Source of the DNA: Chiloscyllium plagiosum
Lineage: Eukaryota
DNA: 64,000 bases
Assembly (NCBI RefSeq): GCF_004010195.1
Contig: NC_057718.1
Coordinates: 69,144,346 to 69,208,345, forward strand
Direction: 5' to 3'
This document shows positions 4,935-63,000 of the stretch, piece by piece. A program made the translations under genes and the position numbers. Positions within the stretch are counted from its first letter, which is position 1. Every line of letters starts with the position of its first letter. A model generated the notes under the pieces. It made no database searches. It was not told the origin of the DNA and saw nothing but the letters and a program-made list of their open reading frames with translations.

Positions 4935-6970
4935 CAATATAGAACAGTAAATGGCCCTTAGGCCCACCAAGCCTGCACTGATTCCTAATCCTTATTTAGA
5001 TCTGCTACATATTGCCTATATGCAGTTTCTGTCCTTCTGTTCACCTATCTATCCAGATAAACCTTAAATGTTGCTAATATGCCTGCTTTCAACATCTCCA
5101 CTGGTAGTGCTTTCCAGGTACCCACCAGCCTTTGTGGGAGAGATTTTCCCTGCACTTCTCCCCTAAACTTTCCTCCTCTTATCTTGAACCTGGTATCCTC
5201 TTGTAGTTGACATTTCCAACCTGGGAAAAGCCTTCTGACTATCCACCCTATCAACTCCTCGCTCAGCTTCCGTCTTTCCAGTGAAGACAATCCGAGTTTA
5301 TCCAACCTCTCCTCATAACTAAAAGCCTCCAGACCAGGCAACATTCTGTTAAAACTTCCCTGCATCCTCTTCAAAGCTTCTACGTTCTACTGGTAGTGTG
5401 GTTACCAGAACTGCACACGATATTCCAAGTGTAGCCGTAAGTTTTACACAGCTGTAACGTAACTTGCCAGTTTTTATATTTGATGCCCCACATGATGAAG
5501 GTAAGCATGCTGTATGCCTTCTTGGCCACCTTAATCAACTGGTGTTGCTACTTTCAGGGATCTGTGGACCTGTATATCTAGATCCCTCAGTATGTCAATT
5601 TTCCCTAATGGTCTTACCATTTAATGTATAATTTGCACCTGAATTTGGTCATCCAAAATGTATCACCTTACATTTGTCAGATTAAACTCTGCCATTTCTC
5701 CATTTTGAAAAACACTTTTCCACCACTACTGTCTATGATCAAACAATGATATGGAGGCGTTGTGATGGACGGAGGTGAACAAAGTTAAAAATCACAACAC
5801 CAGGTTTATTTGGAAGTACTAGCTTTCAGAGCACTGCTACTTCATCAGCTCCCTGATAAAGGAGCAGCACTCCGAAGTCTCATTCTGCTGTTGAGATTTT
5901 TAATTCTTTAATCAAGCCAGTTTTGTATCAGTCTCGCCAACTCACCAGGGTCCCCTAAGATTCCATATTTTGTACCAGCCTGCCAGGAGGTACCTTATCA
6001 AATGTTTTACTAAAGTCCATGTAGACAATATCTATTGTTCTTTCCTCATCATTCATTCTTGTCATCTCCTCAAAAATCTCATTCAAGTTAATGAGACCTA
6101 AACTTATTTGCACAAACCTGAGCTGCTGATTGCTAACAAGTCCATTCACTTCCAAATGTGAATAAATCCAGTCTCTCAGTATTTTCCCCACCACTGACAT
6201 CAGGCTCACTGGCCGGTAATTACCTGGATTACCTGTTTCCTTTTTTAAACAAAGAAAGGCCATTGGCTATTCTCCAGTGCTCTGCAACCTCACCTGATAG
6301 CAAAGAGAATGCAAAGATATCTGTTAAGCCCCTAGCTATTTTCCTTGTTTGCTTCCCACAGTATCCTGTGATCAATCCCATTTAGCCCTGGGGGTGTATC
6401 AACCTTAATATATTTTAAGACACCCAACACTTCCTCCTTCATTATGTTGACTTGCCTGAGAGTATTCGCACACCTTTCCCAAACCTGAATGTCCCTCTCT
6501 TTGGTGAATACTGGTGTATAGCACTCATTAAGGATCTCACCCATTTCCTTTGGGTTCCACACATAACCTCCCTCCTTTTAACCTTGACTGGGCCTTCTCT
6601 TTCCTAAGCTACCCTCTTGCTTCTAATGTATGTATAAAATGCCTTGTTATTTTCCTTAACTCTGTTGACCAAGGAGAATTCATAACTCCTTTTTGAGCTC
6701 CTTCCTACTTTCTCTATATTCTTCACAGCTTTTGTCTACTTTTATTTGCCTAAATATTAGGTATGCTTCCTTTTCTTTTTGAAGAAGCTGATCATTTCTG
6801 CTGTTATCCAAAGTTCCCTAATCCTGCCATTCTTATCCTTCATTTTTACAGAAATGTGCCTGCCTAATTTGGTCAAAGTTGGCCCTCCCCCAGTTTAACA
6901 CCTTCATTGGAGATCTATTCTTGTCCTTATCCATAAGCATCCAAAAACTTACAAAATTATGGTCACCACA
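4935..6970 (-). mobile_element. CR1 LINE, degenerate ORF2 fragments, interrupted by a PLE-derived insert
   Basis: Minus ORFs contain NPGNYRPVSLMSVVGK, VYMDFSKTFDKVP and SYEERLDKLGL. Confidence 0.9.
5752..5878. mobile_element. PLE-derived short element with two degenerate back-to-back hammerhead motifs
   Basis: Family sequence AAAGTTAAAAATCAC...GGAAGTACTAGCTTTC. Minus motif 5818-5848; plus motif ctgataaaggagcagcactccgaag at 5853-5877. Confidence 0.75.
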
Positions 6971-7189
6971 AGTACACCTAAACAGTTCCTTTGTGTTTTA
7001 CAATTTTTCCTGTGTCTAATGACCACCCATGCTACCACTTGATTTCTTGATCAATTATATTCTATTCCTCAGGGTTTTTTTTCAACAGAATATTAGAGAC
7101 TCAAAGTGCCTTGTTTGTTTCCATCAGCTGTTCAAAGACATGGATTTTGTAATTAATCTTGTTTAATCATGGCAAATGAAGTCTCATGT

Positions 7190-7480
7190 TCTTTATTCTT
7201 TCATGGGACGGGGACATTGCTAGCAAGGCAAGCACTTGTTGTCCATCCTTATTTACCTTTGAACTGAGTAAAGCTTTAGGTCATTTCAGAGAGTAATTAT
7301 GGGTCAATCATACTGTTGGTCTGGAGTCATACATAGGTCAGACTGGTAGATTTCCTTCCCTGAAGGAATCAGTGAACCAGATGCATTTTTTTTAAAGATC
7401 ATTTGTCATAGTCACCTTTATTGTGTCTAGTTTTCATATTCCAGATTTATTGTCTAAATTCAAATCCAATGCTGCCGGGG
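7190..7480 (-). mobile_element. Old shark SINE/LINE-tail repeat; related pieces at 19510-19610 and 52335-52500
   Basis: Shared motifs CTGGAGTCA.A..TAGGTCAGAC...TTCCCT.AAGG...GTGAACCAGATG...TTCCAGATTT...ATTCAAAT. Confidence 0.6.
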
Positions 7481-8075
7481 TGACATTTTATCTTGCCTCT
7501 GAATTCCTAGTTTAGAAAAAAAAATCATGGAATAAGGATCTTACTGCTTGGGCCAGCAGTTGTTTTTCATTTCTAGTTGCCGTAGTCCAGTAATATTATA
7601 ATTATGCCAAGAATCTCCACATTTTATTCCATATTTTAAGTATTAAGTTTGTCATACCCAAATACCTTGCAAGGGCAATTCCATTCCCTTTGACCCTCTA
7701 TTTTATAATACACTAGATCTCCTGAAATAAATTCTGTCCTGGATTGATTGATTGATTAATTGCTGATACAATGTCTCTGACCCCTTAATGTTTTCCTCAT
7801 GACCTTAGATTTGGATGGACATTTCGCTCCCTGCATGTAAAGCATCCAAATGTGCAGGAAGATAGAACTAATAGCAGCAGTTTCTAGAGCAGAATCTATT
7901 TCATATCACAGAAGAAAGTTTGGGATTCACACAAACATCAATTGTTATAGACATACTCTCCAACTATCTGGAATGAGTTATTGCATGAACTGCTTATGGT
8001 TGCAAACATGTAATTTGATTATTAGTAAAAATTGTATGCAGCATTTTGTTGATCGCTACGTGATTCTTTTCACAG

Positions 8076-8179
8076 AGCTCACTACTGAAAACTCTTTCAA
8101 CAGCGGTGTTTATGATGATAATGTTAACAGTTTCGAAAATTGTTCTCAGCAGCAAATTCCCTTTCATTATCAAACTGAG
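8076..8179 (+). CDS. Candidate coding exon B (phase 1-0): (E)LTTENSFNSGVYDDNVNSFENCSQQQIPFHYQTE
   Basis: Acceptor gtgattcttttcacag, donor GAG|gtaaag, retained CpGs. Lies within ORF 7850..8233. Confidence 0.45.
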
Positions 8180-8228
8180 GTAAAGATCAATCAGGTAGGT
8201 GTTGTCCCAATCCTTTCTTTATTAATTT

Positions 8229-8549
8229 CATAGAATCGCTACAGTATGGAAACAGGCCATTTGGCCCATCAAGTCCACACCAACCCTCGCACCACCCTAT
8301 CTTATCCTATCCCTGTAACTCTGTATTCTCCACTGCTAATACACCCAGCCTGCACACTACGAGCAATTTCGTACAGCCAATCTACCTAATCTGCACATCT
8401 TTGGACTGCGGGAGGAAACGAGAGCACCCAGAGGAAACTCACACAAACATGGGGAGAATGTGCTAACTCTACACAGACAGTGGCCAAGGGTGGAATCGAA
8501 CCTAGGTCCCTGGTGCAGCAGTGCTAACCATTGAGTTACTGTGCTGCCC
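8229..8549 (-). mobile_element. HE1-type tRNA-derived SINE
   Basis: Canonical body (GGAAACAGGCCATTTGGCCC...CACATCTTTGGACTG.GGGAGGAAAC...GGAATCGAACC...GTGCTAACCA). Confidence 0.9.
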
Positions 8550-8756
8550 CAATTTCTCTACAATTTGTCAATGATCAATGTTTTTAAAGTTCTTACTAAC
8601 ATTTTTGCTCAAATTAGATATTTTTGCTCAAAGGATCTAGAGTGTGACCCATAACCTTCTGAAATGGTTGTTTTCTTGTTGTTAGAACCCTTGCTGATTT
8701 TTCATAATTTTTATTTTTATTCTTTAATCAATTTTGAATTATGAGCTGGAAATGAC

Positions 8757-11079: not shown

Positions 11080-12497
11080 TTTTAGATCAATGGGATTCAG
11101 GGTGAGCTTGCCAACTGAATATATTATTAGTTTAATGGCAGGTGATAGAGGGTAATGGTGGAGGGTTGTTATTTGGACTGGAGGCCTTTCACCAGCAGTG
11201 TTCTACAGGGATCGGTTCTGAGTTCTAGATTAGATTAGATTAGATTACATTACAGTGTGGAAACAGGCCCTTCGGCCCAACAAGTCCACACCGACCCGCC
11301 GAAGCGAAACCCACCCATACATTACCCCTTACCTAACACTACGGGCAATTTAGCATGGCCAATTCACCTGACCTGCACATCTTTGGACTGTGGGAGGAAA
11401 CCGGAGCACCCGGAGGAAACCCACGCAGACACGGGGAGAACGTGCAAACTCCACACAGTTAGTCGCCTGAGGCAGGAATTGAACCCGGGTCTCCGGCGCT
11501 GTGAAACAGCAGTGCTAACCACTGTGCCACTGTGCCGCTCACAAACCTTCTCTCTTTTGTTTGTCATTTATATAAATGATTTGACTGAGAATATAGAAGG
11601 CATGGTTAGTAAGTTCATGGACAACACCAAAATTGGTGGTATAGTAGAGAGTGAAGAAGTTTTTCTAAGATTATAATGGGATCTTGATTAAATGTCAATG
11701 GGCTGAAGAATGGTATGTGGAGTTCAATCTGGATAAATGCAAGGTATTGCATTTTGGTATAACAAACAAGGGTAGGGCTTATACAGTTAATGGCAGGGTC
11801 TTGGATAGTGTTGGAGAACACAGGGACATAGGGGTGTAGGTACATAATTCTTTGAAGTTTTCATCACATATATACAGGCGGTTAAAAAGATGTTTGGCAA
11901 GCTTGCCTTCATTGCTCAGTCCTTTGAGTATAGGAGCTGGAAAGCCATGGTGAGGCTGTACAGGGCATTGATGAGACCTCTTCTGGAATACTGTGTCCAG
12001 TTCTGGTCACCCAGTTATAGGAAGGATATTATCAAGCTGGAGAGGATTCAGAAGAAATCTACTAGGATGTTGCTAGGTACAGAAGGTTTGAGTTATAAAG
12101 AAACTTATTTCACTAGAACGTAGAAAGTTGAGAGATGAACCTGATAGAAGTTTATAAAATAATGAGAGGTATAGATAGAGTCAGTGGTAGTTGTGTTTTG
12201 CTAGGATGGGAGATTTCTATTTAAGGGGCACATTTTTAAGTTGAGAGGGGAGTGATTTTTTAAAAAATCACATGAGAGACAAATTTTGTAAATAGAGGGC
12301 GGTTTGAGTGTGGAATGAACTTCCTGAGGAGGTGATGGATGTGCCTACAACTACAATGTTTAAAGGACATTTAGATAGGTACATGATTAGGAAAGGTTTG
12401 GAGGGATATGTTACGGGAGCATTCAGTTTAGTTTGGGATTATGTTCGGCATGGACTGGTTGGACTGAAGGGTCTGTTTCTGTGCTGTATGACTCTAT
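11080..12497 (+). mobile_element. CR1 LINE RT/3' fragment, split by a young HE1 SINE
   Basis: LFVIYINDL...SKFMDNTKIGG and RPLLEYCVQFWSP. Ends in an ATGACTCTATG tail. Confidence 0.9.
11226..11538 (-). mobile_element. Young full-length HE1 SINE with a (TAGAT)n tail
   Basis: CpG-rich, intact A/B-box region (minus strand GGTTCAATTCC), microsatellite tail. Confidence 0.95.
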
Positions 12498-14569: not shown

Positions 14570-14897
14570 ATAGAATGACTACAGTTTGGAAACAGGCCAT
14601 TTGGCCCAACAAGTCCACACCGATCTTCCAAAGATTATCCCACCCAGACCAATTCCCCTTTCCTACTACTCCACATTTCCCCTGACTAATGCATCCAACC
14701 TATACATGCCTGAACACTGGCCAACTTAGCATGGCCAATTCACTTAACCAGCACATCTTTGGACTGTGGGAGGAAACCCACACAGACACGGGGAGAATGT
14801 GCAAATTCCATACAACCAGTCACCCAAGGCTGGAATCAAACCCAGATCCCTGGTGCTGTGGGGCAGCAGTGCTAACCACTAAGTCACTGTGCCACCC
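14570..14897 (-). mobile_element. HE1 SINE
   Basis: Canonical HE1 body. Confidence 0.9.
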
Positions 14898-15065
14898 TAC
14901 TACAATGCTGGCAGCAAGGAAAGTGTTGTGGAGATGTGCAGATGCAAACACTTCCATGAGGTTTAAAACCAAGTAAACAAAGGACAGGTTTCAGAAGAAG
15001 AAGTTAACTTCAAACATCATGTTAATGGTAAAAGATAATCAGAAGTTGTATAACCTGAAAAACAT

Positions 15066-16369: not shown

Positions 16370-19300
16370 ATGTATATCTCCCATAAACTTTTCCCCTCTC
16401 ACTTTGAACTTGTGACCCCTAGTAATTGAGTCCTCCACCCTGGGAAAATGTTTCTTGTTATCCACCCTGTCAACACCTCTCATGATTTTGTAGGCCTCAA
16501 TCAGGATCCCCCCCACCGCAACCCAACCTCCTTCTTTCCAATGAAAATAATCCTAATCTACTCTACCTCTCCTCACAGCTAGCACTTTCCATACCAGGCA
16601 ACATCCTAGTGAACCGCCTCTGCACCCTCTCCAAAGCAGCCATATCCTTTTGGTAATGTGGCAGCCAGAACTGTATGCAATATTCCAAATGTGGCTGGAC
16701 CAAAGTCTTATAGAACTGTAACATGACTTGCCAACTCTTCTACTCAATACCCCGTCCGATGAAGGACAGCATGCCGTATACCTTCTTGACCACTGTGACC
16801 TGTGATGCCACCTTCAGGGAGCAATGGACCTGAACACCCAGATATCTCTATACATCAATTTTCCCCAGGGTTTTTCCATTTACCATATAGTCACTCTGGA
16901 TTTGCATCTTCCAAAATGCATCACTCACCTTTGTCCAGATTGAAGTCCATCTGCCATTTCTCTGCCCAACTCTCCAATCTATCTATATTCTGCTGTATTC
17001 TCTGATAGTCCCCTTCACTCTCTGTTACTATACCAATCTTAGTGTCAGCTGCAAACTTGTAATGAAGCAACCTACACCTTCCTCCAAATCATTTATGTAT
17101 ATCACAAACAACAGTGGTCCCAGCATGGTCCCTATGGGATACCAGTGGTCACAGGTCTCCATTTTGAGAAGCTCCCTTCCATTACTACTCTGTCTCTTGT
17201 TGCCCAACCAGTTCTCTATCCATCTGGCTAGAACACCCATGCGACTTCACCTTCTGCATCTACCCTGGGGAACTTAATCAAATGCCTTACTAAAGTCCAT
17301 GTATATGACATATACATCCCTTCCCTCATCAATCAACTTTGTCACCTTTCAAAGAATTCTATTAGTTTTGTAAGACATGACCTTCCCTGCACAAAACCAT
17401 GCTGTCAATCACTGATAAGCCCATTTTCTTCTAAATGGGTATATATCCTATCCTTTAGTAGCTTCTCCAGTAGCTTCCCTACCACTGACGTCAGGCTCAC
17501 AGCTCTGTAATCCCTGGATTATCCCTGCTACCCTTCTTAAACAAGGGGACAACATTAGCAATTCTCCAATCCTCCAGGACCTCCCCCATTTTCAAGGATG
17601 CTGCAAAGATATCTGTTAAAGCCCCAACTATTTCTTCTCTCACTTCCCTCAGTAACCTGTTATAGACCCCATCCTTTACTTCCTCCCTCCTTATGCCGAC
17701 TTGACCAAGAGTAAGCAAAGACCTATCCCTAACCTCAACATCCGTCATGTCCCTCTCCTTGGTAAATACTGATGCAAAGTACTCATTAAGAATCTCACCC
17801 ATTTTCTATGACTTCACGCATATCTTTCCTCCCGTGTCCTTGAGTGGGCCAACCCTTTCCCTCGTTACCCTCTTCCTCCTTATATATGAATAAAAGGCTT
17901 TGGGGTTTTCCTTAAACCTGCTCGCTAAGGATATCTCATGACCCCTTTTAGCCATCTTAATTCCTCATTTAAGATTGATCCGACATTCCCAATATTCTTC
18001 CAAAGCTTCATCTGACTTCAGTCGCTTAGACCTTATGTATGCATCCTTTTTCCTCTTAGGTAGTCTCACAATTTCACTTGTCATCCATGGTTCCCTAATC
18101 TTGCCATTTCTATCACTCATTTTCACAGGAACATTTCTCTTCTGAACTCTAATCAATCTCTCTTTAAAAGCCTTACACATATCGAATGTGGATTTCCCTT
18201 CAAGCAGCTGCTCCTAATCTACATTCCCCAGCTCCTGCCAAATTTTGGAACAGTTGGCCTTCCCCCAATTTAACACTCTTCGTTTAGGACCACTCTCAAC
18301 TTTGCCCATTATTATCCTAAAACTTATGGAATTGTGATCACTATTCCCAAAGTAATCCCCCACTGAGACTTTAATTACCTGGCCGGGCTCATTTCCTAAC
18401 ACCAGGTCCAGTATGGCCCCTTGACGAGTTGGACCCTCCTGGATACTCATTACAAATTTTGCTCCATCCAATCCTCTAACACTAAGTGAATGCCAGTCAA
18501 TGTTGGGAAAATTAAAATCCCCTCTTTACCACTACTCTGCTACTCCTACATCTTTCTATGATCTCTCTACATATTTGTACCTCTATCTCACACTTGCTTT
18601 TGGGATGCCTGTAGTACAGCCCCAACATTGTTACCGCACCCTTCCTATTTCTGAACTCTTCCCATATTGCCTCACTGCTTGAGTCCTCCATATTGCCCTC
18701 CTTCGGCACTGCTGTGATATCTTCTTTGACCAGTAATGCAACTCCTCCACACCTTTTACCTCCCTCTCTATCACGCCTGAAGCATCGATATCCTGGGATA
18801 TTTAGTTGCCAATCATGCCCTTCCCTCAACCAAGTCTCAGTAATAGCAATAACATCATACTCCCAGGTACTATTCCAAGCCCTAAGTTCATCTGCCTTAC
18901 CTACTATACTTCTTCCATTAAAACAAATGCACCTCAGACCACCAGTCCCTCTGCGTTCATCTGCCACTTCCTGCCTATTCTTCCCCTAAGTCACACTAAC
19001 TTCATTACCTAAGTTAAAAATCACACAACATCAAGTTATAGTCCAACAGGTTTAATTGGAAGCACCCTAGCTTTTATCAGGAGTGGCGCTCCGAAAGCTA
19101 GTGTGCTTCCAATTAAACCTGTTGAACTATAACCTGGTGTTGTGTGATTTTTAACTTTGTATATCCCAGTCCAACACCGGCAACTCCAAATCATGTTCAT
19201 TATCTAATTCTTTACAGGCTTTAGTTACTAACTTCTTCCTGTCCACTAACCTCCTCATTTGGTTCCCATCCTCCTCCCCAACAGTGTTAGCAAAAGCACC

Positions 19301-21899: not shown

Positions 21900-22050
21900 T
21901 GTCCTTGTCACTTTAATAATATCTACCTGCTTTTCTCTTTGATTTTTATCATCTGCTGCCCGGTCATTAAACTCGATACATTAACTCTGTCTTCTCTTCA
22001 CAGATGCTGCCAGACCTGCTTAGTTTCTCCAGTAATTTTGTGTTTTGGTG
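21900..22050 (+). mobile_element. PLE-type 3' terminal fragment
   Basis: CTCTTCACAGATGCTGCCAGACCTGCTTAGTTTCTCCAG, as at 55160-55219. Confidence 0.65.
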
Positions 22051-27060: not shown

Positions 27061-27225
27061 ACCTACCTCTTTGCTATCTCTGGAGAAGACTGGGACATAC
27101 ACCTGCCTTCTCACTGCCTCTGGAGAAGACTGGGACATACACCTGCCTCCTCACTGCCTCTGGAGAAGAGTGGGACATACAACTGCCTCCTTGCTGCCTC
27201 TAGAGAAGAGTGGGACATCTCCTGC
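27059..27225. repeat. 40-bp minisatellite, about 4 copies
   Basis: Unit tggagaagactgggacatacacctgcctyctcactgcctc starting at 27081, 27121, 27161 and 27201. Confidence 0.95.
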
Positions 27226-27819
27226 TAGGATGCAGAGGAATCCATGTCCCTCCAACCAAGGACCATTTGTCGCTCCACTGCAACTCACCAGGCAATGCAG
27301 GCTAAGGTCTGTACATATCCTTGACTAGTGACTATGTATGTCCAGAACAGCAACACTCCTACCCCACCCCTCCCAAATGGCATGATGGAGACAAAGGACT
27401 GTGTAATCTGCTCCCTTGAATTCAGAAGCATGGATCCACTCATCACCCCCACTCCCCACCCCCTGCACAACCACTCTATTTGGACACCTGATGGCGTCTG
27501 AAACCTTGGGTTGGAATGGAAGGCAGTACTTGACTAACAGTACCCCTGACTGTTAGTTCCCTTCATGGACTTCACTGAAGAATACTCTCCTAATAGTTTG
27601 GGACAAGGCTAACTGCTTGCTGCAAATGCACTGGGCTTGGCACAAACTCTGCAACAAAATGGTGCAGATGTGACACTGACATGGTACTCTGCCAAATGCA
27701 AAAAGTGTGAAACCCTGACTTGGGACTTCTGTGATGTGGAGGAGCTTGTGTTAGACTGGGGTGAACAAAGTTAAAAATTACACATCACCATATGATAGTC
27801 CAACAGGTTTATTTGGAAG

Positions 27820-27854
27820 TACTAGCTTTCGGAGTGCTGCTCCTTCATCAGATA
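27820..27854 (-). ncRNA. Minimal type-I hammerhead ribozyme motif
   Basis: UAU-CUGAUGA-A-GGAG cagca CUCC-GAA-AGCU-A-GUA. Confidence 0.7.
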
Positions 27855-28031
27855 GCTGTGGAGTAGGACCATAAGAGACAGAGTTTTTAGAAAAGTTTTG
27901 TGTCATGCAACTGAACTGATATATTGAACAAGCCTAGATTGCTGTCTAGGTTTGTTCGATACATCATTTCGGTTGTATAACACTGTAATCTTTTGCTATA
28001 AATTCTGTGCCTTATGGTCCAGCTCTACAAC

Positions 28032-28066
28032 CACCTGATGAAGGAGCAGCACTCCGAAAGCTAGTG
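28032..28066 (+). ncRNA. Minimal type-I hammerhead ribozyme motif (intact core)
   Basis: CAC-CUGAUGA-A-GGAG cagca CUCC-GAA-AGCU-A-GUG. Stem I CAC/GUG, stem II GGAG/CUCC, palindromic stem III AGCU, predicted cleavage after CUA. Confidence 0.8.
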
Positions 28067-29504
28067 CTTTCAATAAACCTGTTGGACTGTAGCCTGGTGT
28101 TGTGTGATTTTTAACTTTGGGACTGTTGAGCAGCATGGCCAGCGATTTGGTTCTGTGACTGTGCTAACTGACACTCCAAGACAGAGCAAGGCAAGGCATG
28201 CAAGCTATGGGCATATCGATAGGTACCAGGTCAATGCATACTAAGAAAGCAAATAATCTGCCCTGGATGACTGACTCATTCAGGCTGTGGGCCAAGTGCC
28301 TGATTTTCTTTGTTGATTGTTGATTTCTGGTTGCTGATATGCCATGTTATGCATGTCTGGATTTCCCAGGAGCACTGCTAGTACATTGGAGGGGTGTCAA
28401 GATGGTGGCAAATGTTGCTGAATTTCAGATGCCAATATCCACAAATGAAGGATGGTGCCCTAAGTTACTGTTTGCTTGTGAGTAACAGCGAAGCCATTCG
28501 GAGGAAGCGCTGAGCTGAACCCGGCAGGTACCCATGCTGGGTTTCCTTGATGGCTAATTTGTTGGGTGAGTTTGGTAAGATCAATAGCAGAATGATTACA
28601 AGATAAATTGGGCTTAAAAACAAGCTTAACAAGTATTAATCATGATCAATTGACAACTTGCTGCTTCCTGACGAGAATCTCACCAAGCTGCTTGGAAAAA
28701 TGTAAAGGTTGAAGCAGGATAATCTTGATTTCAGGATGAGTCTCGCCAATTCAGCCACACCTCTTTTTATAGCTCATGTTGCTTAGACTTGTAAGATTCC
28801 ACTCCTGGAATTGACTGCCCTCAATGGCAGTGGAAGTGGAAAAGATTATTGCTTTTAAACATAAATTGGATGAGCACTTTCACGACTGTGAGGATGGAGT
28901 GTGGGAATGGGACAGACTGGATTACACTAGAAAGCTGGTAATGGATTGAATAGCGTTCTCTGTTGCATAATGACTCAAAACTCCAATTTAATAATATCGC
29001 TGAAAATTTCACATCCTAACCTTTTCTGTTGTTGTAAAGTCTTCTTTTCTGAACCTTGTTGTTTTATTATTTGTAAATTTGTGCCTCTCACTGACTAGTG
29101 GAAATAGTCCCATAACCATTCAGAATTTTCAAACTCTCCTTTAGATGATCACTTTAACTTTCTCTTTTCTAGCTGAGAAGTTTAAACTTAGCTGAATGCA
29201 TTTGTTTGAATTGCGACTTGAATCATATATTTCACAGTCTATTTATTAAGTAATCTGAAAATGTTCTGAATTTTCCACTGCAAGTATCACAATATTCAGC
29301 AAGGAAACCCAGACATGATTCAAACAGACTGTCATGTCTTTTATCCTCCCAGGTACTATTACCTCAGGCCAATTTCCACATTATTTCAGTTGGATTTTTA
29401 TGTGGGTGAATTGCTCAAGCAGACAGAAAGTGACAACACATTTGTGCAGCTTTAAAAAGTAGGGAGGGAAACGTTTTTGACAAAGTAATATTTTTTAACT
29501 TCAG

Positions 29505-30414: not shown

Positions 30415-31108
30415 CTGTTTGGATGTGAATATAGGAGATATGATTAGTAAGTTTGCAGATGACACCAAAATAAAGTTAAAAATCACACAATAGTCTAACA
30501 GGTTTAATTGGAAGCACACTAGCTTTTGGAGCGACGCTCCTTCATCATCCGAATCATGACACCAAAATAGGTGGTGTAATGGACAGTAAAGAAGATTATT
30601 TCAGACTACAACAGGACCTTAATCAGATGGGCCAATGGGCTGAGGAGTAGCCGATGGAATTTAATTGGAAGATTTGAGTCATAACGAGAGGCTGAATAAG
30701 GTGGAGCTTTTGGCGATGGAGCATTAGAGGCTGAGGAATAACCTTACAGAAATTTATAAAATCATGAGGGGTTCAGACAGGGTGAATAGTCAAGGTCTTT
30801 TTCCTAGGGTGGGGAAGTCCAAAACTAGATGGCATAGGTTTAAAATGAGAGGGGAAAGATTTAAAAAGGACGTCAGGGGTTACATTTTCATGCAGAGGAT
30901 GGCGCATGCATGGAATGATCTGCCAGAGGAAGTGGTGGAGGTTGGTACAATTACAACATTTAAAGATATCTGGATGGGTATATGAATAGGAGGAGTTTAG
31001 AGGAATATGGACCAAATGTTGGCAAATGGGACTAGGTGAGGTTGGGATGTATGGTTGACGCGGACAAATTGGACCGAAGAGTCTGTTACTATGACTTTAT
31101 GACTGTAT
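30415..31108 (+). mobile_element. CR1/HER1 LINE fragment with an internal deletion
   Basis: SKFADDTKIGG, ORF 30764..30985 and a CR1 3' UTR. Confidence 0.9.
30473..30555 (-). mobile_element. 83-bp PLE-derived insert with a 14-bp TSD and degenerate hammerhead
   Basis: TSD atgacaccaaaata at 30459-30472 and 30556-30569. Minus strand UGAUGAAGGAGCGUCGCUCCAAAAGCUAGUG. Confidence 0.85.
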
Positions 31109-32354: not shown

Positions 32355-33685
32355 GCATGGATCTGACAAGGGAGTTGCAGAGGGAATGGTCTCTCTGAAA
32401 CGCTGATAGGGGTGGGGAAAGAAATGTCCCTGGTGGTAGGGTCTGTTTGTTGGTGGTGCAAGTGACAGAGGGTGAACGATGTGCATGGAGGTTGGTGGGG
32501 TGGAAGGTGAGGGTATTCTGTCCTTGTTTCATTTGGAGGAGTGGGGTTCAAGGGCGGAGGTGCGGGAAGTGGAGGTGATGCGCTGGAGGACATCATCAAC
32601 CACGTGAGAGGGGAAGATGCGGTCTTTGAAGAAGGAGGCCATCTGGGATTTTCTATGATGGAATTATCTATTCTCAATTCCTCCGTCTGTGCCCCATCTG
32701 TTCCCAGGATGACCAATTTCACCATAGAAAATCCCAGATGGCCACTGTCTAACTCCCTCATGAGATCCATGCCCTCCACCAGTCCTCACCCCTCTCCTGG
32801 CACCTTCTCCTGCCTCATCCTCTGCCTTTGGACCCTGTGACCACATGGGATTAGTGGAATTTCACCAGTTTCCTCATTTCCCTTCCCCCCACCTTATCCC
32901 AGTCCCAACCCTCCAACTTGGCACTGCCCTCTTGACCTGTCCATCGCCTTTCCCAGGAAGTTTTGCAGGAAGTGCAAAACTTGTGCCCCACACCTCCTCC
33001 CTCACCTCCGTCAAAGCCCCAAAGGATCCTTCCACATCAGATTAAAATTTACCTGTACCTTCAATAATGTCATCTTCTGCATCCGTTGCACCCGGTGGTC
33101 TCATCTACATCGGGGAGGCAGGGCGTCAACTTGTGGATTGTTTCAGAAAATACCTCTGGGACACCCGCACTAACCAACCCTACCACCCCACTTCAACTCC
33201 CCTTCCCACTCCACTGTGGACATGCAAGTCCTGGGTTACCTCTATCACCAAACCCCAATCACACGATGCCTGGAGGAAAAATGCCTCATCCTCTGCCTTG
33301 GGACCCTGTGACCACATGGGATTAGTGGAATTTCACCAGTTTCCTCATTTCCCTTCCCCCCACCTTATCCCAGTCCCAACCCTCCAACTTGGCACTGCCC
33401 TCTTGACCTGTCCATCGCCTTTCCCATCTATCCCCTTCATCCTCCTCTCCAACCTATCACTTTCTCCTCCACCTTCATCTACCTACTGCATTCCCAGCTG
33501 CCTTTCCCCCCAGCCCACGCCCCTCCCATTTATCCTTCAGTCCCCCGGTCCACAAGCCTCATCCTAATGAAGTGCTTATGCCTGAACTATCGATTCTCTT
33601 CCTCAGATGTTGCCTGACCTGCTGTGCTTTTCCAGCACCATACTCTTGACTCTGATCTCCAGCATCTGCAGTCCTCACTTTCTTC
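32355..33685 (+). mobile_element. Rearranged Penelope-like (Neptune-type) element with a GIY-YIG remnant and an inverted 5' part
   Basis: GLIYIGEAGRQLVDCFRKYL (ORF 33067..33567). The C-rich 3' region ends in a degenerate hammerhead at 33564. Segment 32355-32665 is inverted. Confidence 0.8.
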
Positions 33686-33753: not shown

Positions 33754-33886
33754 TATTCCCGATGAAGGCATTTTGCCCGAAACATTGATTTTCCTGCTCA
33801 TTGGATGCTGCCTGACCTGCTGTGCTTTTCCAGCACCACTCTAATCTAGACTCTGACCTCCAGCATTTGCAGTCCTCACTTTTGCC
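33754..33886 (+). mobile_element. 133-bp PLE-derived insert starting at a degenerate hammerhead, with a 14-bp TSD
   Basis: TSD tagttgaacaaaac at 33740-33753 and 33887-33900. Contains ccgatgaaggcattttgcccgaaacattg. Confidence 0.85.
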
Positions 33887-35587: not shown

Positions 35588-35920
35588 AGAATCCCTACGG
35601 TGTGGATACAGGCCATTTGGCCCATCGAGGCACAGCAGCCCTCTGAAGGGTATCCCAATCAGACCCTATCCCTATAAGCCCACCTTTCCCAAGGCTAACC
35701 CACCTAGCATGCACATGCCTGGACACCAGGAGCAATTTTGCATGACCAATCCACCTAACCTGCGCATTTTTGGACTGTGGGAGGAAACTAGAGCACCAAG
35801 AGGAAACTCATGCAGTCACGGGGAGAATGTGCAAGCTCCACATAGACAGTCACCCGAGGGTGGAGTCAAACCCATTTTCCTGGCACTGTGAGACAGCAGT
35901 GCTAGCCACTGTGTCACCCC
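35588..35920 (-). mobile_element. HE1 SINE
   Basis: Canonical HE1 body. Confidence 0.9.
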
Positions 35921-38408: not shown

Positions 38409-38732
38409 CATAGGATCTCCATAATGTGGAAACAGGCTATTCAGCCCAAAACATCCACACCGACCTTCCAAAGACCATCCCAGCCAGACCCATCCCCCCC
38501 TGTAACCTTGCATTTTCCATGGTTAACACACCTAACCTACACATCCCTGAATACTATGGTCAATTTAGAATGACCAATTCAACTAGCTTGCACATCTTGA
38601 CTGTGGGAGGAAGCCAGAACACCTCGTGGAAACCCATGCAGATCAGGGAGAATGTGCAAACAGGGTGGAGTTGAAACCAGGTCTCTGGCACTGTGAGGCA
38701 GCTACGTTAACCACTGAGCCACTGTGCCACCC
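38409..38732 (-). mobile_element. HE1 SINE nested in the Gypsy element
   Basis: Canonical HE1 body. Confidence 0.88.
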
Positions 38733-39254
38733 TTTGATGAGCAATGGATCAAAATACTGTCTAGATGATCTACAATACCTTCTATTCGTTCCAATGTTTT
38801 ATATTGTTCTCTGGAATTGTCCTCTGTGTTTCACATAGACATGATTCTAAAACATAGGTAGTTGAAACAATATCATCCAAATTACATAAAGTTAAAATTG
38901 TCAAGTTTAAATCTAGCCTCCAAAGTCCACTATTTGCATTCAATTTTGTAGTAATGGTATTCTTTTCTCGTCTGCAGATTCCATTGTGTGTACTGCATGT
39001 TCTAGGGCCTTGTTCAGTTGAAAAAGTTTGATATAGACATTTGGATTTGGATCAGATTGATCAGGTACCAGACAAGAACATCATTTCGTAGATCTAGTAA
39101 CTGATTAAATAACTCTTTCTTGAAGCATTGTTTCATGTTTCACTTCTGATATTTTCAGATGGTTGTGGATCTTTTCTGAGAACAAACTGGCATCCACTCC
39201 AGATGAATATGAGTCTGAATTACTTGTTTTGCTGTTTATGTTTGACTTGGTCCA

Positions 39255-39669: not shown

Positions 39670-39840
39670 CCACTTTTTAAAATTAAGTCATATTCTATAC
39701 ATGTTTTTCTGTGGGTCTGGAAAATGTGTAGTATTTCATGGATTTCCATGTCTCTTTTTTTTTGCTTTGATCTTCAGTTTGATCTTATTGTACCCTGAAT
39801 TCAAATAAATGAAGATTGCAATTAGAATTGGAACCACCAA

Positions 39841-40144
39841 CTGTGTGGAAACAGGTCCTTTGGCCCAACAAGTCCACACTGACCCTCCAAAGAGTATCCC
39901 ACCCAGACCCATTCCCCTACATTTCCGCTGACACATGCACCTAACCTATACATCCCTGAACACAATGGGCCATTTTAGCACGGCCAATTCACCTAACCTG
40001 CACATCTTTGGATTGTAGGAGGAAATCCACACAGACACAGGGAGAATGTGCAATCTCCACACAAACAATCACCCTCGGCTGTGTCCCTGATGCTGGGTCC
40101 CTGATGCTGTGAGGCAGCGGTGCTAACCACTGAACCACCTTGCC
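39841..40144 (-). mobile_element. HE1 SINE nested in the Gypsy element
   Basis: Canonical HE1 body. Confidence 0.9.
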
Positions 40145-40719
40145 TTTAAACTGAGCCATTCTATCTCACACTGAGACTGTTGCTCTTGTGTCCAGTTTGT
40201 AAATGTTACTGTGTCCTTTGGCCTCTTTATTATCACTCCAGTTTTTAAAAAATTCATTAATTTTCCCCAGGAAGGTTTTTTTTTCCATTACCAGTTCCTT
40301 AATTTCTTGGATAATGCTCGTCTTTGAAGTTTTTTTCTCTACTTTGAGGATAAGTATCTGTTGCAACAGCATACTAATTTAAAATAAATTGACTTTTCTG
40401 CATGCAAGGCACTCTGCGGTTTGAGCAGACATTCTTTATGCCTGTGAACCTTCTTCTTGCCACAGCAGAGACATGACAAATGGCATCTGGCACACTTTCC
40501 TTGTACTCCCGGGCTGCTGCCATGGTGCTTTTATTTATGCTGCTATATTGACACAACTCAAACTGTTTCTTCTTAGCGATTCCTCTCCATTTCTTAATAG
40601 TGACTTGATTTTATGCTTTACTGCTTTAATCAAAATTAGATCTACCATGGACTGCAGGAAGTCTAAAACACATTAATCTAAAACATCAACTATTCTATCT
40701 TGGATCACGTTGTCAACAA

Positions 40720-43660: not shown

Positions 43661-43874
43661 AAGAAACTCTTGCGACCTTTTAAAGCAATTATTTATTTAA
43701 ACCAAAATATCTATATACATTACATTCTGCATAAGGTCTAAGTTCTTTCACTGGAGTCTCATTATCATCATCATCATCATGTAATGATGACAGGAACAAT
43801 GATATAGCCTCTAAGTGTTTAGAAGTTAATACTTTGCTTCACAAGATAGATCAGAAATAGAGAGATCGCAGCAA

Positions 43875-44202
43875 GTTTTGAGAAGGTTTGTAGCTCAGGT
43901 TGAGATTCTGGATGTAGGTTTGCTCGCTGAGCTGGAAGATTCATTTCCAGATGTTTCATCACCCTACTAGGTAATATCTTCAATGGGCCTCTGGACGAAG
44001 GACTGCTGATAATTCCTGCTCTCTATTTATATGTTTGATGTCAGGAGATGACATCACCAACCCAAAGAGACCCAAACATATAAATAGAGAGCAGGAATTA
44101 TCAGCAGTGCTTCGCCTGGAGGCCCACGGAAGATATTACCTAGTAGGGTGATGAAACGTCTGGAAATGAACCTTCCAGCTAGGTGAGCAAACCTACATCC
44201 AT
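43875..44202. mobile_element. PLE-derived inverted-repeat element with two degenerate hammerheads
   Basis: Arms at about 43911-44036 and 44073-44200. Motifs CCA-cggaaga-UAUUACC..GGUGAU-GAAACGUC-UGG (44124-44163 +) and its mirror (43947-43986 -). Confidence 0.8.
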
Positions 44203-45784
44203 AGAGAGATCCAATACAGGAAATGAGAGCTTGAAGTGCATGATTACAAATGCACAGTGTGGTATGAAAAATTTGGTACACTGCAGATAAAAATAGCCAT
44301 ATAAAATTATGATGTGTTATTAAAGCATCCAACCACAACTCTCTGCTATTGAACTGGTTCAAACAAAAGGAGGAACTTAGTAAAAGAAATGTGTTAAAAA
44401 TGGTGCAATCTGAACTAAAAACATAAAGAGCTGGTAGTACCCATCACTTGTCTGATAGTATCTGCAGCGAGAGAAATTGAATTAATATTTCTAATCAAAT
44501 ATGACTCTTCTTTGGAAATTAACATTTAAGGTATACTCTTTAAATGCATTCAAAAAAGTGAAAGAAGGAGAAAAAGGAAAATGAAGATAAGCTCCTTCGG
44601 ATTCAAAGATAACATCTGTTAGGTTACACTTAAAGAACATCCAGGATCTATTACGCTGCTGTCTATGTAGTTTAGTACATTCGTAATTAACCATCATCCA
44701 CGAGGGAATGTAGACACCTCTCAATTTTCAATGCAATTCTGCACGCTACTGTCGTTTCTCATGTTCTCCACCTATTCTCCGCTGGTATTTCCTAATGTTT
44801 CACCATCTACTGTCACACTACCTTTTCCCTCCTGATCTATAAGTCCACAAGATACAGAGACATTGATTTACCTGCATCTCCCAAAGTGTAATTACATCCT
44901 TTCTATATTGTGTTGACAAAAGCTGACAACAGTTCTGTATTTCTAATCAAAGTTCTGTATTTCTCTTAAAACTTATACCGCAATTGATAAAGGCAAGTGT
45001 CCAATTGGCCTTCTTAACACCCGACTAACCTGTCCTGCAATCTTCAGGGATTTGTGCACAAGCACCCCAAGTTCCTTCTGTTCCTCTGAGCATGCCAGTG
45101 TCTTGCCATGCTTTGAATACTCTCTTGACTTGTTCCTTCTTCCAAAGTACGTCACGTCACATTTATCAGGGTTAAGTTCCATTTGCCACTGATCTGACTA
45201 GCCCATTTATATCCTTCCATAACCTAACACCTTCAACCACTTAGCCAATCTTAGTGTCATCCATAAACTTACTTATCATCTCTCTCACATTGTCATCCAC
45301 ATAATTTATGAATATCACAAACAATAAGGTACCCAGCATTGATTCCTCTTGTGCACCACTGAATACTGGCCTCTAGCCACACAAGCAGCCTTCTAACATC
45401 ACTCTTTATCTCTTACCATTACTTAAACACTTGGTCACCTCCACAAAAATGTCCATCAAATTTGTTTGGCCTGACTTGCCTCTGACACAGCCATGCTGAC
45501 TACCCCAATCAAACATTGCCTCTCTAAACAGAGATTAATTTTCTCCTTCATGATTTTATTCAATAGTTTCCCTATCTCTGATGTTAGACATACTGATCTG
45601 CAGTTTTCATGTCTATCTCTACCACCCTTTTTTAAAGTGGAACCACATCAGCTGTTCTCTAGTCATCTGATACATCCTCTATGCCCAGAGATGATTTGAA
45701 AATTTAGGTCAGCGTCCTTGGGATTTGTCTGCTTTAAAATCCACCAAAACATTCAACACCTCCTCACTTCTTATTATCAATCTC

Positions 45785-45928
45785 AGGCACCCCCCCATTT
45801 ATCTCTCCACCCTGGAGGCTTCCTGCCTCTGTTCCTGATGAAGGGCTTTTGCCCAAAACTTTGATTTTCCTGTTCCTTGGATGCTGCCTGAACTGCTGTG
45901 CTTTTCCAGCACCACTCTGATCTAAACT
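45785..45928 (+). mobile_element. PLE-derived short insert with a near-intact hammerhead
   Basis: UUC-CUGAUGA-A-GGGC uuuu GCCC-aAAAC (45832-45860), where G>A is consistent with CpG decay. Confidence 0.75.
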
Positions 45929-52340: not shown

Positions 52341-52504
52341 AACCACGCTGACATCGGTCTAGAGTCACATGTAGATCAGACCCCTAAGGAAGACTGATAT
52401 CTTTCCCTAAAGGGGCATTTGTGAACAAAATGAGTTTTTGCAAAATTCAGTATTATTAATCCTTTAATTCCAGTATTTATTGAATTCAAATGCCACCATC
52501 TATT

Positions 52505-52778
52505 GTTAAAAATCACACAACACCAGGTTATAGTCAACAGGTTTAATTGGAAGCACACTAGCTTTCGGAGCGACGCTCCTTCATCAGGTGATAGTGGAGG
52601 GCTCGATCGTAACACAGAATTTATAGCAAAAATGTATAGCAAGAATTTATACGATCTTCTTCAGGCTCATGCTCGAAATGTTCGATTCTCCTGCTCCTTG
52701 GATGCTGCCTGACCTGCTGCGCTTTTCCAGCAACACATTTTCAGCTCTGATCTCCAGCATCTGCAGTCCTCACTTTTT
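52505..52778. mobile_element. Two fused PLE-derived ends in opposite orientation
   Basis: Family-1 arm 52505-52635 (minus-strand hammerhead) and family-2 tail 52663-52778 (plus). Confidence 0.8.
52556..52590 (-). ncRNA. Minimal type-I hammerhead ribozyme motif (intact core)
   Basis: CAC-CUGAUGA-A-GGAGC guc GCUCC-GAA-AGCU-A-GUG, with CpGs retained. Confidence 0.82.
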
Positions 52779-53459: not shown

Positions 53460-53850
53460 ATAAAAGCAAAATACTGTCGATGAGAAAATCTGAAAAAAAA
53501 ACAGATAGTGCTCGGGAATCTCAGGTCTGGCAGTATCTGTGGACAGAGAACGAGAGGTAACATTTTGGATTTGATATGACTCCTTTTTAAAACTGAAAGC
53601 TGTTGGAATATGGTTCTTATGCTGTTGTCAGAGGGGGAGGAGGAGAGTGGGGAACAGATGGTGAGGACGCCCAGAATAAAAGGCAAAAGGAGTGTGCACG
53701 TGGTGGTAAAGAAGAGATATAAATGATAGGTTTGAAAGGAGAAAATGGTTCCACTCTGTTGAGAGGAAAGCAAACAAAACATAAAAATTACACAGTGGGT
53801 TTTGGTAGAGATGGGTGGTTCATATAAACAAAATGGAGGACAGAGGTCAT
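53460..53850 (-). mobile_element. PLE-type terminal fragment, degenerate
   Basis: AAAGCAAAATACTG...CAGGTCTGGCAGTATCTGTGGACAGAGAA, as at 55015. Confidence 0.6.
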
Positions 53851-53869
53851 GACAATGATCAAATCATTG

Positions 53870-55012: not shown

Positions 55013-55224
55013 AAATAAAAGCAAATTACTGCGGATGCTGGAATCTGAAACCAAAAGTGAAAATGCTGGAAAATCTCAGCAGGTCTGGCAGCATCTGTAA
55101 GGAGAGAAAAGAGCTGACGTAAGCTTTGACAAAGGGTCAGTTATACTCGAAACGTCAGCTCTTTCTCTCCTTACAGATGCTGCCAGACCTGCTGAGATTT
55201 TCCAGCATTTTCTCTTTTGCTAGA
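55013..55224. mobile_element. Palindromic PLE-derived mini-element with a 10-bp TSD and variant hammerhead
   Basis: TSD ctattccaat at 55003-55012 and 55225-55234. Arms 55053-55120 and 55152-55219. Motif GCU-uUGACaA-AGGGU..ACUC-GAAACGUC-AGC. Confidence 0.85.
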
Positions 55225-56375: not shown

Positions 56376-56710
56376 GAATCATATAGAGCAGAAGAAGGTC
56401 ATTTAGTCCCTTATGTCTACACCAACCCTCTGAAGAGCATTTAACCCAGACCCACCCCCCCAATCCACCCTATCCCTGTAACCCACAATTACCATGGCTA
56501 ATCCACCCAGCCTGCACATCCATGGAAACTATGAGGTAATTTAGCATGGCTTATCCATCAAACCTATACATTTTTTGGACTGGTAAAGGAAACAGAAATC
56601 CAGTGGGAACTCTCACAGACAGAGGACAAAAATGGAAACTCCACCCAAACAATCACCCAAAGTTAGTGCTATGAGACAGCAGTGCCAATTACTGTGCCAT
56701 CATGTCACCC
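56376..56710 (-). mobile_element. HE1 SINE, diverged
   Basis: Canonical HE1 body. Confidence 0.85.
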
Positions 56711-57592: not shown

Positions 57593-57828
57593 TAAAGGCA
57601 AAACATTGCAGATGCTGGAAATCTGAAATAAACACAGGGAATGCTGGAGAGGTTCAGCAGGTCTGGAAGCATCTATGGAGAGAGAAACAGAAATGTTTTG
57701 AGACCGTCAAAACTCTTCTTCAGAACTTCTGAAGCAGAGTCATGCCAGTCTCAAAATGTTATCCTTATTTTTCTCTCTCAACAGATACTGCCAGACCTGC
57801 TGAGTTTCTCCCACATTCTCCATGTCTG
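57593..57828. mobile_element. Older palindromic PLE-derived mini-element
   Basis: Same architecture as 55013-55224. Degenerate core ctgaagcagagtc...gtctcaaaatgtt near 57728. Confidence 0.7.
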
Positions 57829-58306: not shown

Positions 58307-58492
58307 CTTGTTGCCAAAGCAGCAATTATCCTCCACAGTTAAATAGCCTGCATATGGTGCAGGACCTGTTCTCTTCACACCTGGTCCATAAAATATTGTG
58401 TAGCTCGAAGGATAGCTGTTAGCCTCTATATATTCGTTCTTAGCTTGCATGATGAAAAGTGACCATATATTTATAAATGTGACGACGTATTT
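58307..58492 (-). CDS. Candidate minus-strand exon (phase 0-0, 62 aa): KYVVTFINIWSLFIMQAKNEYIEANSYPSSYTIFYGPGVKRTGPAPYAGYLTVEDNCCFGNK
   Basis: Pyrimidine-rich acceptor ...tattctatacttctattatag, donor AAG|gttaat, 186 nt open, CpGs retained, non-repeat sequence. Confidence 0.25.
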
Positions 58493-60088: not shown

Positions 60089-60142
60089 ACATACACCAAG
60101 TAACACCCAACTCACCATCGACAGGAAATAAACACCACTCCC

Positions 60143-60280
60143 CATTCTAAAGGTCACTGGACTTGAAACATTAGACTTTATCTCTGCTTTCTTTCTACAG
60201 ATACTGCCAGATGTACTGAGTTTCTCTAGCAATTTTTTTTGTTTCAGATCTTCAGCATCCACAGTTCTTTGTTTTATTTT
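60143..60280 (+). mobile_element. PLE-type 3' terminal fragment
   Basis: ggtcactggacttgaaacatt...CAGATACTGCCAGA...CAGCATCCACAGTTCTTTG. Confidence 0.65.
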
Positions 60281-61511: not shown

Positions 61512-61820
61512 ACAGCATGGTGGCTCAGTGGCTAGCACTGCTGCCTTACAGTGCCAGGCAACCCGGATTTGATTCCACCTATGGATGACTGTCTGTGTGG
61601 AGTTTGTACATTTACCCCATGTGTGCATGGGTTGCCTCTGGGTGCTTCAGTTTCCTCCTATAAGTTAGATGGATTGGCCATGCTAAATTGCCCATTGTGT
61701 CCAGGCATAATAGTTTAAATGGATTAGCCATGGGAAATGCAGCATTGCAAAGATAGGGGTGGCTTTGGGTGGGATGCTCTTCAGAGGGTCAAATGGCCTA
61801 CTTCTACAATGTAGGGATGC
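61512..61820 (+). mobile_element. HE1 SINE
   Basis: GGTGGCTCAGTGGCTAGCACTGCTGCC head and canonical body. Confidence 0.88.
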
Positions 61821-62419
61821 TATACATGGATGGCACCAATCCACTTGCAGCTACAGCATCATTAACAGTCTATTTAGACCACTCCAATCCCATCAATGCT
61901 TTCTTACTTCATGCACTGCTAGGACCATGCCCACTCCCAAGCTCTGCTCTCCTGCTCCACACTCTGTTCAGATTTACCCTACTACCAGCTCTGCTCCCAT
62001 GCTCTGCCAAGCTCTGCTCAGACCCTCTCTGTTCCCTTGCTTCACTTTCTGCTCAGACACAATCTATTCCCAGCACTGCTCGCAAGTTCCACACTCTGCT
62101 GAGACCCTACCCTCTCCCAGTTATACTCCCTTGCTCCAAACTCCACTCAGACATTCCCCACTCCAACTTTGCTCAACAGTCTGCCTAGACCTTCTCCTCA
62201 CTGGCTCTGGATCAGTCCGAGATCCCTGCCTCAATGTGGTAAGTGTTCCTGCTGCAGCCTTTCAATGCTAGTTGCCAGTATACCCTGCAATTTAAATATG
62301 TACTTCCTAAGCAGCCTGCATGTGTATTGGAGATGTTTCTCGATAGTCTTGATGGGATGTCAATGTCAGATGTCAATATCTCTGAATGAAGTGTGCTTGC
62401 AGCTTGTGTCCGTAGACAT

Positions 62420-63000
62420 ACTGGCCACACTGCCATACATTAAGGGTATACCAGAAATGGCCACCAGACTACTCCAACCCCTGGGTATCATAGTAGTCCA
62501 CAAAGTAACTACCACACTACGATAGCTACTAACAAGTATAACCAACAGGACCAACGTTATATACAAAAAACCATGTAAAGATCACCAAAAGCACAATATA
62601 GGGCAAACTGGAAGGAAATTACCTACCAGGGTACACGAACACCAACTAGCCACCAAGAGACATGACTAGCTGTCACTTGTACCCATACACTCGGACAGTG
62701 AAGATCACTAATTTGACTGGGACAACGGATCCATCCCAGGACAAGCCAAACAGAGGCTTGCATGGAAATTCCTGGAAGCTGGGCACTCAACCTGGAACTC
62801 CATTAACAAACATGTAGAGTTGGACCCTATATACCAACTATTAAGGAACAGCAACAAAATTGGAAATGACACCACCAACCCCAGCAGACCCAGACATCCA
62901 ATGCTTTACCAGAGGCACACTGATGATGTTACCTAGAATGGTGATGAAATGTCTGCGAACAAACCTACCAGGTCAGTGAGCAAGTCAACAACCTCATCCA
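62420..63000 (+). mobile_element. Penelope-type PLE 3' part: RT C-terminus/linker, GIY-YIG endonuclease and 3' hammerhead
   Basis: TLPYIKGIPEMATRLLQPLGI...TNVIYKKPCKDHQKHNIGQTGRKLPTRVHEHQLA, with in-frame stops. Confidence 0.88.
62918..62955 (+). ncRNA. Minimal hammerhead motif downstream of the GIY-YIG ORF
   Basis: CA-CUGAUGA-U-GUUACC uagaau GGUGAU-GAA-AUGU-C-UG. Confidence 0.7.

Follow-up and report, generated by a model that had tools for sequence, protein, structure and literature searches.

The stretch of DNA analysed here, referred to throughout as the window, comprises 64,000 nt of the 3.56 Gb assembly of the shark Chiloscyllium plagiosum (NC_057718.1, 69,144,346-69,208,345) and carries hammerhead ribozyme motifs belonging to four families of hammerhead-bearing terminal repeat, F1 to F4. 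There is very little doubt that these motifs are minimal type I hammerheads and that the terminal repeats (pLTRs) holding them belong to four lineages of Penelope-like elements (PLEs), three of Neptune type and one of Poseidon type. The explanation that best accounts for the whole, and which we regard as probably correct, is that the short copies of these PLE hammerheads arise by internal priming on uncut RNA, which is copied through to a start at the 5' edge of the ribozyme. Both the motif class and its link with PLEs have been known since 2014 (PMC4209133), and hammerheads in PLE repeats would on their own be an ordinary finding. What more than 100,000 near-identical copies add is a record, in their insertion ends, of which RNA templates were copied in vivo; it puts the template start at the 5' edge of the ribozyme and shows no excess of ends at the cut site.

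Hammerhead motifs in the window and the genome

Family profiles built from natural copies were run on the window, on its reversed sequence and on 1.16 Mb of eight contigs. The window gave 22 matches (F1 8, F2 4, F3 3, F4 7) and the reversed sequence none, with all 22 sites being pieces of PLE terminal repeats. An earlier note on this DNA had listed 17 sites, all of which carry the described motifs on direct inspection and by profile; five matches, at 19007-19092(-), 21962(+), 53495(-), 55049(-) and 57628(-), lie beyond that list. Intactness, defined as a kept core with stem I of at least 3 bp, stem II of at least 4 bp and a palindromic helix III, was scored for 16 copies (three with an offset slip), the remaining six matches being without the start of the core. 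Fully intact motifs number four of the 22, with core position C3 (named, as are G8 and G12, by hammerhead numbering) at 27851(-), 28035(+), 52587(-) and 55126(+); the other copies are truncated or mutated, frequently at core CpGs. Ten of the 22 matches are arms of five head-to-head pairs, and there are therefore fewer insertion events than motifs. Target-site duplications (TSDs) of 8-14 bp adjoin six of the 11 units tested, and a seventh match, of 8 bp, lies farther out and may be due to chance.

The same note described the families as sequence-distinct with unrelated flanks and stem II, which does not hold for the flanks of F2 and F4, as these have a common 3' tail and their profiles cross-match. 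The CUGANGA/GAAA core that it expected of the families stands as a motif class, with CUGANGA and GAAA-N-N-UH in type I topology, but CUGANGA does not hold at 55126, where the core is of a U3-A8 type, and most window copies are decayed or cut. The shared layout with one extra base before stem II was borne out, patterns that include it far exceeding their controls, as was the link with PLEs, the motifs adjoining reverse transcriptase (RT) and GIY-YIG genes in sampled loci.

The suggestion that the genome holds a very large population of such motifs is also upheld. Exact patterns, which require a full stem II and have the extra base and G10.1-C11.1 built in, match 18,923 times for F1, 86,357 for F2, 1,553 for F3 and 607 for F4, with no control matches for any of them. 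A general core pattern, again with the extra base and G10.1-C11.1 built in but with the stems not demanded, gives 166,601 genome matches against 356 in the control; this amounts to 47 per Mb, so that the three in the window are as expected. When tail-only pieces are included there are 413 terminal-repeat matches in the 1.16 Mb sample (355 per Mb), which extrapolates to approximately 1.1-1.3 million pieces in the whole genome. The window is typical of the genome, as nine other stretches contain 20-32 profile matches per 64 kb compared to its 22. The hammerhead models of Rfam give no window match at the gathering threshold and none at E up to 1, and annotation by Rfam thus overlooks every hammerhead motif of the window. 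None of the 127 non-repeat window open reading frames (ORFs) matches a host Pfam family. A literature search, outside which lay most subscription papers, Dfam and Repbase, yielded no publication dealing with these shark families or with the 5' edge.

Elements that carry the motifs

Of 30 F1 loci, 23 have a sense hammerhead behind a Neptune-type ORF and three have a 5' copy joined to the start codon; the ORF starts ~90 nt below the cut site, and in one locus (L075), which has both repeats, the start codon lies where the tail ends. The sense match follows RT in 16 of 20 loci for F2, whilst among core-selected loci the motif follows GIY-YIG remnants in 5/15 for F3 and 4/15 for F4, with RT plus endonuclease (EN) in one sampled copy of the latter. 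A cysteine linker (CX2-5CXXC) precedes GIY-YIG in F1, F2 and F4 and is absent from F3, and this linker is described as a Neptune-only feature among EN-bearing PLEs (PMC8557442). F1, F2 and F4 would therefore be Neptune-type and F3 Poseidon-type, clade names that rest on the linker, not on a tree. The closest named relatives of the F3 protein come from carpet sharks (Chiloscyllium, Hemiscyllium, Rhincodon and Stegostoma), those in Chiloscyllium being 88-92% identical; no relative of it was found in the PDB. Pfam searches of genomic fragments were weak, with two of five matched, below cut-off.

Two further features of the Poseidon-type lineage were observed. Its ORF (L178:130-741, and other F3 copies) ends within the 3' ribozyme, with the stop codon in loop II, and two annotated isoforms in Chiloscyllium punctatum, MAP3K7 X3 and NT5DC1 X3 (P0085, P0089), contain Poseidon endonuclease sequence that is either exonised or an annotation artefact.

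Conservation of the ribozyme fold

The first three pairs of stem I form in 88, 85 and 70% of 161 distinct intact motifs, whereas 500 shuffles reach at most 68, 52 and 52%; the fourth is marginal and there is no pairing at the fifth. The base-pair types of stem I include C-G, U-A, A-U and G-C and differ between lineages, although covariation counts are inflated by the relatedness of the motifs. The extra base before stem II is A in 136, U in 23 and C in two of these motifs. At positions 15.2/16.2, 228 of 274 copies have CG or GC (149 and 79 respectively) and 42 more have CpG-decay products; the palindrome reads ACGU in F2, F3 and F4 and AGCU in F1. The subfamily that includes 55126 has 1,146 exact copies genome-wide, and among the matches listed (100 of the 1,146) 93 are U3-A8, seven are C3-A8 and none has G8; a general U3-A8 pattern has a high background (2,218 compared to 878 in the control). 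A swap to U3-A8 has been reported earlier in Schistosoma (PMC4209133), and the subfamily represents a natural rescue of the core pair in a vertebrate.

That the matches arose by chance, or that the sequence is conserved for a reason other than ribozyme activity, is scarcely credible. The silence of the Rfam models at either threshold and the weak folding of the monomers would both fit such a view, against which stand the excess of 166,601 matches over 356, the covariation together with the U3-A8 swap, and the occurrence of the same layout in two PLE clades.

Within copies, non-CpG positions differ less in the core than in the tail (24/1,064 against 306/4,636 for F2; 16/344 against 118/1,517 for F1), and CpG sites decay at 13-29%. 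A purge of intact cores by the host is thus not supported. As the core of copies has not been destroyed faster than the tail, selection would have acted on the source elements, and the low core difference probably reflects conservation of these elements plus base composition.

Ends of genomic copies

Copy ends were mapped in the 1.16 Mb sample relative to the cut site, with F1 and F2 seeded on the tail. From 235 F2 tail matches 143 were retained, 15 having been dropped for adjoining gaps or sample edges and 77 for being F4-like or less than 84% alike; filtering kept 64 copies of F1, 23 of 30 for F3 and 66 of 83 for F4. The F3 counts of 5' ends given below are those among the matches listed (the first 41 places, with one already in the set removed).

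The number of 5' ends grows as the 5' strand of stem I is approached, beyond which it falls about tenfold. Of the copies that reach the zone from -27 to -40, 59/87 in F2, 21/44 in F1 and 25/36 in F4 end within it, compared to 2/28, 3/23 and 0/11 in the next 20 nt upstream (Fisher p = 8e-9, 0.007 and 4e-5 respectively); the mode in F2 is 4 nt above C3. Short F3 copies end up to 15-17 nt above C3, with 0/28 in the next zone. The pile-up recurs in young copies and in bystander copies, and in independent public contigs and reads the top 5' loose end is exactly at -32 with unrelated flanks. An alignment artefact was rejected as its cause, simulated truncations giving 0/168 false calls. Splicing as an origin of the edge was likewise rejected, since AG is absent from that position in F1 and F2, only one alike pair occurs among 30 non-inverted F2 flanks and no such joint is present in the reads.

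Cleavage might have left a fossil in the form of 5' ends clustered at the cut site. This was looked for and discarded, since there is no excess at -4 to +4 in any family (F2 6/131, F1 2/57, F4 2/53, F3 0/40). This bears on the model of Cervera and De la Pena (2014), in which cleavage is central: ribozymes cut a precursor into unit RNAs that are ligated to circles and copied by rolling reverse transcription. The strongly conserved, covarying fold and the existence of partial tandems with long 5' repeats agree with that model, and a ligated circle would leave no cut-site end. However, RNA that had been cut and not ligated should yield such ends, the model leaves the 5' edge unexplained, and ribozyme mutants insert normally in vitro (PMC11167929). 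We consider it improbable as the origin of the short copies, and it may apply to rare full-length or tandem copies.

The 3' ends are bimodal, with modes ~37 nt apart (approximately +55 and +92 in F1, +60 and +97 in F2, +40 and +76 in F3), and solo copies are 90-130 nt long. Such uniform units, with TSDs and a very high copy number, invite the alternative that they are an independent, self-renewing family akin to short interspersed elements (SINEs) or non-LTR (long terminal repeat) retrozymes, and tandem retrozymes have been reported in one chondrichthyan (bioRxiv 2026.07.22.740005). We think this very improbable, as the units are the termini of elements in the same families that carry the ORF, are without the upstream box described below and have ragged, not fixed, 5' ends; furthermore the window contains no head-to-tail tandem array of hammerhead units (arrays were not searched for genome-wide).

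An upstream box and the likely start of the RNA

Long copies contain a TATA-like box above the ribozyme, seen in 18/22 copies of F1, 9/10 of F3 and 13/14 of F2, where it reads T/C-TTATC; in F4 it lies at -33 to -35 from C3. The distance from box to C3 is 33-40 nt in F1, F2 and F4 and 47-53 nt in F3, the F3 box being 12 nt farther upstream than in the other families, and the box is ~30 nt upstream of the 5' edge. The usual spacing from TATA to start for Pol II is 30 nt. In each family the position 30 nt below the box falls on the outer 5' edge, which suggests that the RNA is likely to start with the ribozyme, and in F2 and F4 the edge sequence reads like an initiator. That the transcript begins at the 5' edge of the ribozyme is, judged from sequence, a better than even prospect, and if it does this would account for the prevalence of solo motifs among PLE hammerheads. 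In a rotifer pLTR a putative TATA box with an initiator has been described (PMC3846280). Reported starts of PLE transcripts lie in the upstream repeat.

Proposed origin of the short copies and role of the ribozyme

In the scheme that we propose the pLTR would be a TATA/initiator promoter whose RNA starts with the ribozyme. The priming site would be present twice in a full transcript, in the 5' and the 3' repeat, and once in an RNA fired from a long 3' repeat into the flank. RT would prime internally just below the ribozyme and copy the uncut RNA to its start, so that use of the priming site near the RNA start would leave solo units of the observed length, whilst priming on both DNA strands would give head-to-head pairs. 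The RNAs copied into insertions had not been cut at the nearest ribozyme, in agreement with the behaviour of mutants in vitro (PMC11167929).

The function of PLE hammerheads has been called unclear (PMC4209133, PMC8557442, PMC11167929). Those described here are predicted to cut only as a dimer or with an element protein. Cleavage of the 5' copy would take away the cap along with the first 32-37 nt, and cleavage of the 3' copy would separate the ORF from the priming site; because cutting would in these ways cost the RNA its cap or its priming site, the most likely role of the ribozyme is as a brake or in late processing, not one needed for insertion. This role, as a brake or late processing step gated by dimerisation or by protein, is put forward tentatively, and we think it somewhat likelier to be wrong than right. 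Closer to an even prospect, yet still short of one, is a broader statement: that the hammerhead of shark PLEs is the first structure of a capped transcript, that around a million fossils record uncut RNA primed in its 5' repeat, that the ribozyme acts as a gated, cap-removing brake and that carpet sharks hold the densest population of ribozyme motifs that we found in print.

A number of observations weigh against this scheme. The monomers fold no better than shuffled sequences (z -0.35 to -0.76), which is as expected because the motifs are thought to need a partner, and in the most frequent subfamilies of F2, 26 of 45 distinct motifs are mismatched (U-U) at stem I pair 3, a position that is U-A in a sister subfamily; the ribozyme of F2, the most abundant family, may be the weakest. 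The F2 box is not a canonical TATAAA, and as the long reference copies are related the box counts stand for approximately three subfamilies per family. In Drosophila, Penelope is reported to have a different layout, with an internal promoter and a 75-bp intron 46 bp below the start (PMC2377424). The edge class of F3 is small (8/37 among the matches listed, one at a gap excluded). RNA reads (2,018 aligned, in both orientations) mirror the DNA profile and no start or end of a molecule was seen in them; only seven were 99% alike, a second RNA set gave none and the library type is unsuited to the detection of ends.

Two more such observations also favour the main rival, in which the 5' edge is a hotspot of RT stopping, fold-back or template switching at the ribozyme on a long tandem RNA. 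Of the 15 F1 copies with an ORF start that reach the zone, five end at the edge and 10 extend upstream of it, and many templates were therefore longer than the proposed transcript; and four of the eight F3 edge copies end at stem I, not 30 nt below the box. In addition many ends near the edge abut an inverted copy (43/73 in F2, 18/28 in F1), short near-palindromes span the edge and self-priming has been proposed for inverted pLTR junctions (PMC3846280). However, the stops climb toward the far (5') side of the ribozyme before they drop about tenfold, when a block would be expected to take effect on the near side; among the 73 F2 ends, 30 are flanked by sequence that is not an inverted copy, and no more than one pair of these flanks is alike; and the outer edge follows the TATA-like box across families. 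We regard this rival as unlikely, and copying of uncut RNA to a start at the ribozyme edge remains the explanation that we prefer.

Individual copies in the window

The F1 family is represented by two decayed or truncated head-to-head pairs, two inverted partners with intact hammerheads, a solo unit and a further copy. In the head-to-head pair at 5770..5876 the minus arm has kept its core with broken stems and the plus arm is decayed, whilst both arms of the pair at 19007..19195 begin within the ribozyme and are flanked by a 12-bp TSD with one mismatch. The arms at 27755..27865(-) and 28021..28121(+) are inverted partners and both hold an intact minimal hammerhead: the former has C3 at 27851 with a stem I of 3 bp and a stem II of 4 bp, and the latter, with its hammerhead at 28035-28063, has TATAAA 38 nt before C3 and an 8-bp TSD. 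The solo unit at 30471..30547(-) starts at the core, with C3 lost, G12 mutated and a 14-bp TSD. The copy at 52501..52640(-) contains an intact minimal hammerhead (52559-52587; stem I 3 bp, stem II 5 bp) and stands back to back with an F2 fragment, 52664..52777(+), that starts in stem II. Copies of F2 within or against F1 elements were also observed at three sampled loci (L099:3525-3860, L074:1098-1274 and L097:3583-3690), which together with window 52501-52777 suggests that one lineage inserts into the repeats of the other.

Other F2 copies in the window are a longer one at 33444..33680(+), with a pyrimidine-rich upstream part, a TTTATC box and a decayed core at 33564; a solo unit at 33754..33885(+) that begins at the 5' edge of stem I and includes the whole tail, with a mutated core and a 14-bp TSD; and one at 45818..45917(+) in which G12 is mutated. 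The Poseidon-type F3 forms a head-to-head pair at 43868..44204, with both cores decayed and an 11-bp TSD, and a copy at 62745..63005(+) in which a C-terminal GIY-YIG remnant runs into the hammerhead at 62920, whose core is kept and which has CpG decay in helices II and III.

F4 provides a head-to-head pair at 55013..55223 with a 10-bp TSD, the minus arm of which starts at the helix III palindrome and the plus arm of which holds the intact U3-A8 core variant (55126-55156, with a self-complementary stem I of 4 bp), and a second, decayed pair at 57628..57826. Single F4 fragments lie at 21962..22045(+), beginning at stem II, at 53495..53572(-), which is old, and at 60149..60241(+), where the core is decayed; the first two are among the sites missing from the earlier list. 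Four head-to-head pairs (19036-19132, 55063-55208, 44017-44093 and 57653-57805) form long hairpins with weak, sub-threshold microRNA-precursor scores in Rfam, and such hairpins are a possible genome-wide source of double-stranded RNA.

Among the other repeats there is an abundant ~300-bp SINE-like repeat (8230-8548, 11241-11541, 14570-14898, 35586-35928, 38410-38733, 39829-40149 and 56377-56658), presumably resembling the shark HE1-type SINE, and a tandem repeat of a 40-bp unit at 27078-27225 (3.7 copies, 91% matches). A weak RNase H-like match at 37978-38211(-) (PF17919, E 6e-4, below cut-off) is probably the remnant of an LTR retroelement, as is a frame outside the window (L062:9189-9887) with zinc-knuckle-like and aspartic-protease-like motifs.

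Comparison with known systems

The motifs closely follow the minimal hammerheads of metazoan PLEs (PMC4209133), being type I, with a helix III consisting only of the palindromic 15.2/16.2, an extra base between 9 and 10.1 and G10.1-C11.1; as in those, several families occur per genome, mostly as single or inverted copies, and a U3-A8 variant is found. They differ in having a stem I of 2-4 bp. No shark is named in the text of that paper or in its one searchable supplement, nor is a mapping of copy ends such as that made here described in it. Its counts are ~4,000 for coelacanth and ~9,000 for Xenopus, compared to 107,000-167,000 here, with different methods.

Among studied elements Poseidon PAc of Anolis (PMC11167929) offers the nearest parallel to the scheme proposed above. 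There RT initiates internally, a tail is present and the protein-assisted ribozyme is dispensable for insertion; two RT start sites bound a 30-40-nt tail, the ribozyme is near the ORF start and no RNA ends at the cut site, all of which resemble the shark families. The PAc ORF begins inside the ribozyme, whereas that of F1 starts well below it, and the 5' pile-up of genomic copies seen here is not among the features described for PAc.

With Neptune and with Penelope/Poseidon PLEs (PMC8557442, PMC3846280) the shark families share the order of RT then GIY-YIG, with the linker in Neptune only, as well as partial tandems, inverted 5' copies, an optional tail and solo pLTRs. The insertion features of EN-bearing PLEs are likewise present, namely an optional tail of 30-40 nt, inverted 5' copies and TSDs. 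Unlike known solo pLTRs, the shark solo units resemble primary insertions flanked by TSDs rather than the products of a deletion. Their copy number is above the ~37,000 cited as high for Naiads (PMC8557442), which argues against the loss of the ribozyme helping proliferation.

Finally, the non-LTR retrozymes (PMC7229834) are also PLE-related, carry type I hammerheads and reach a very high copy number. They are tandem repeats of 170-400 nt that give circular RNAs, whereas the shark units are shorter, dispersed and not tandem. In axolotl 126,247 retrozyme hammerheads have been counted (PMC7229834) in 28 Gb (bioRxiv 10.64898/2026.07.22.740005) by a different method, and the density of motifs per megabase in C. 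plagiosum is approximately ten times that of these retrozymes.

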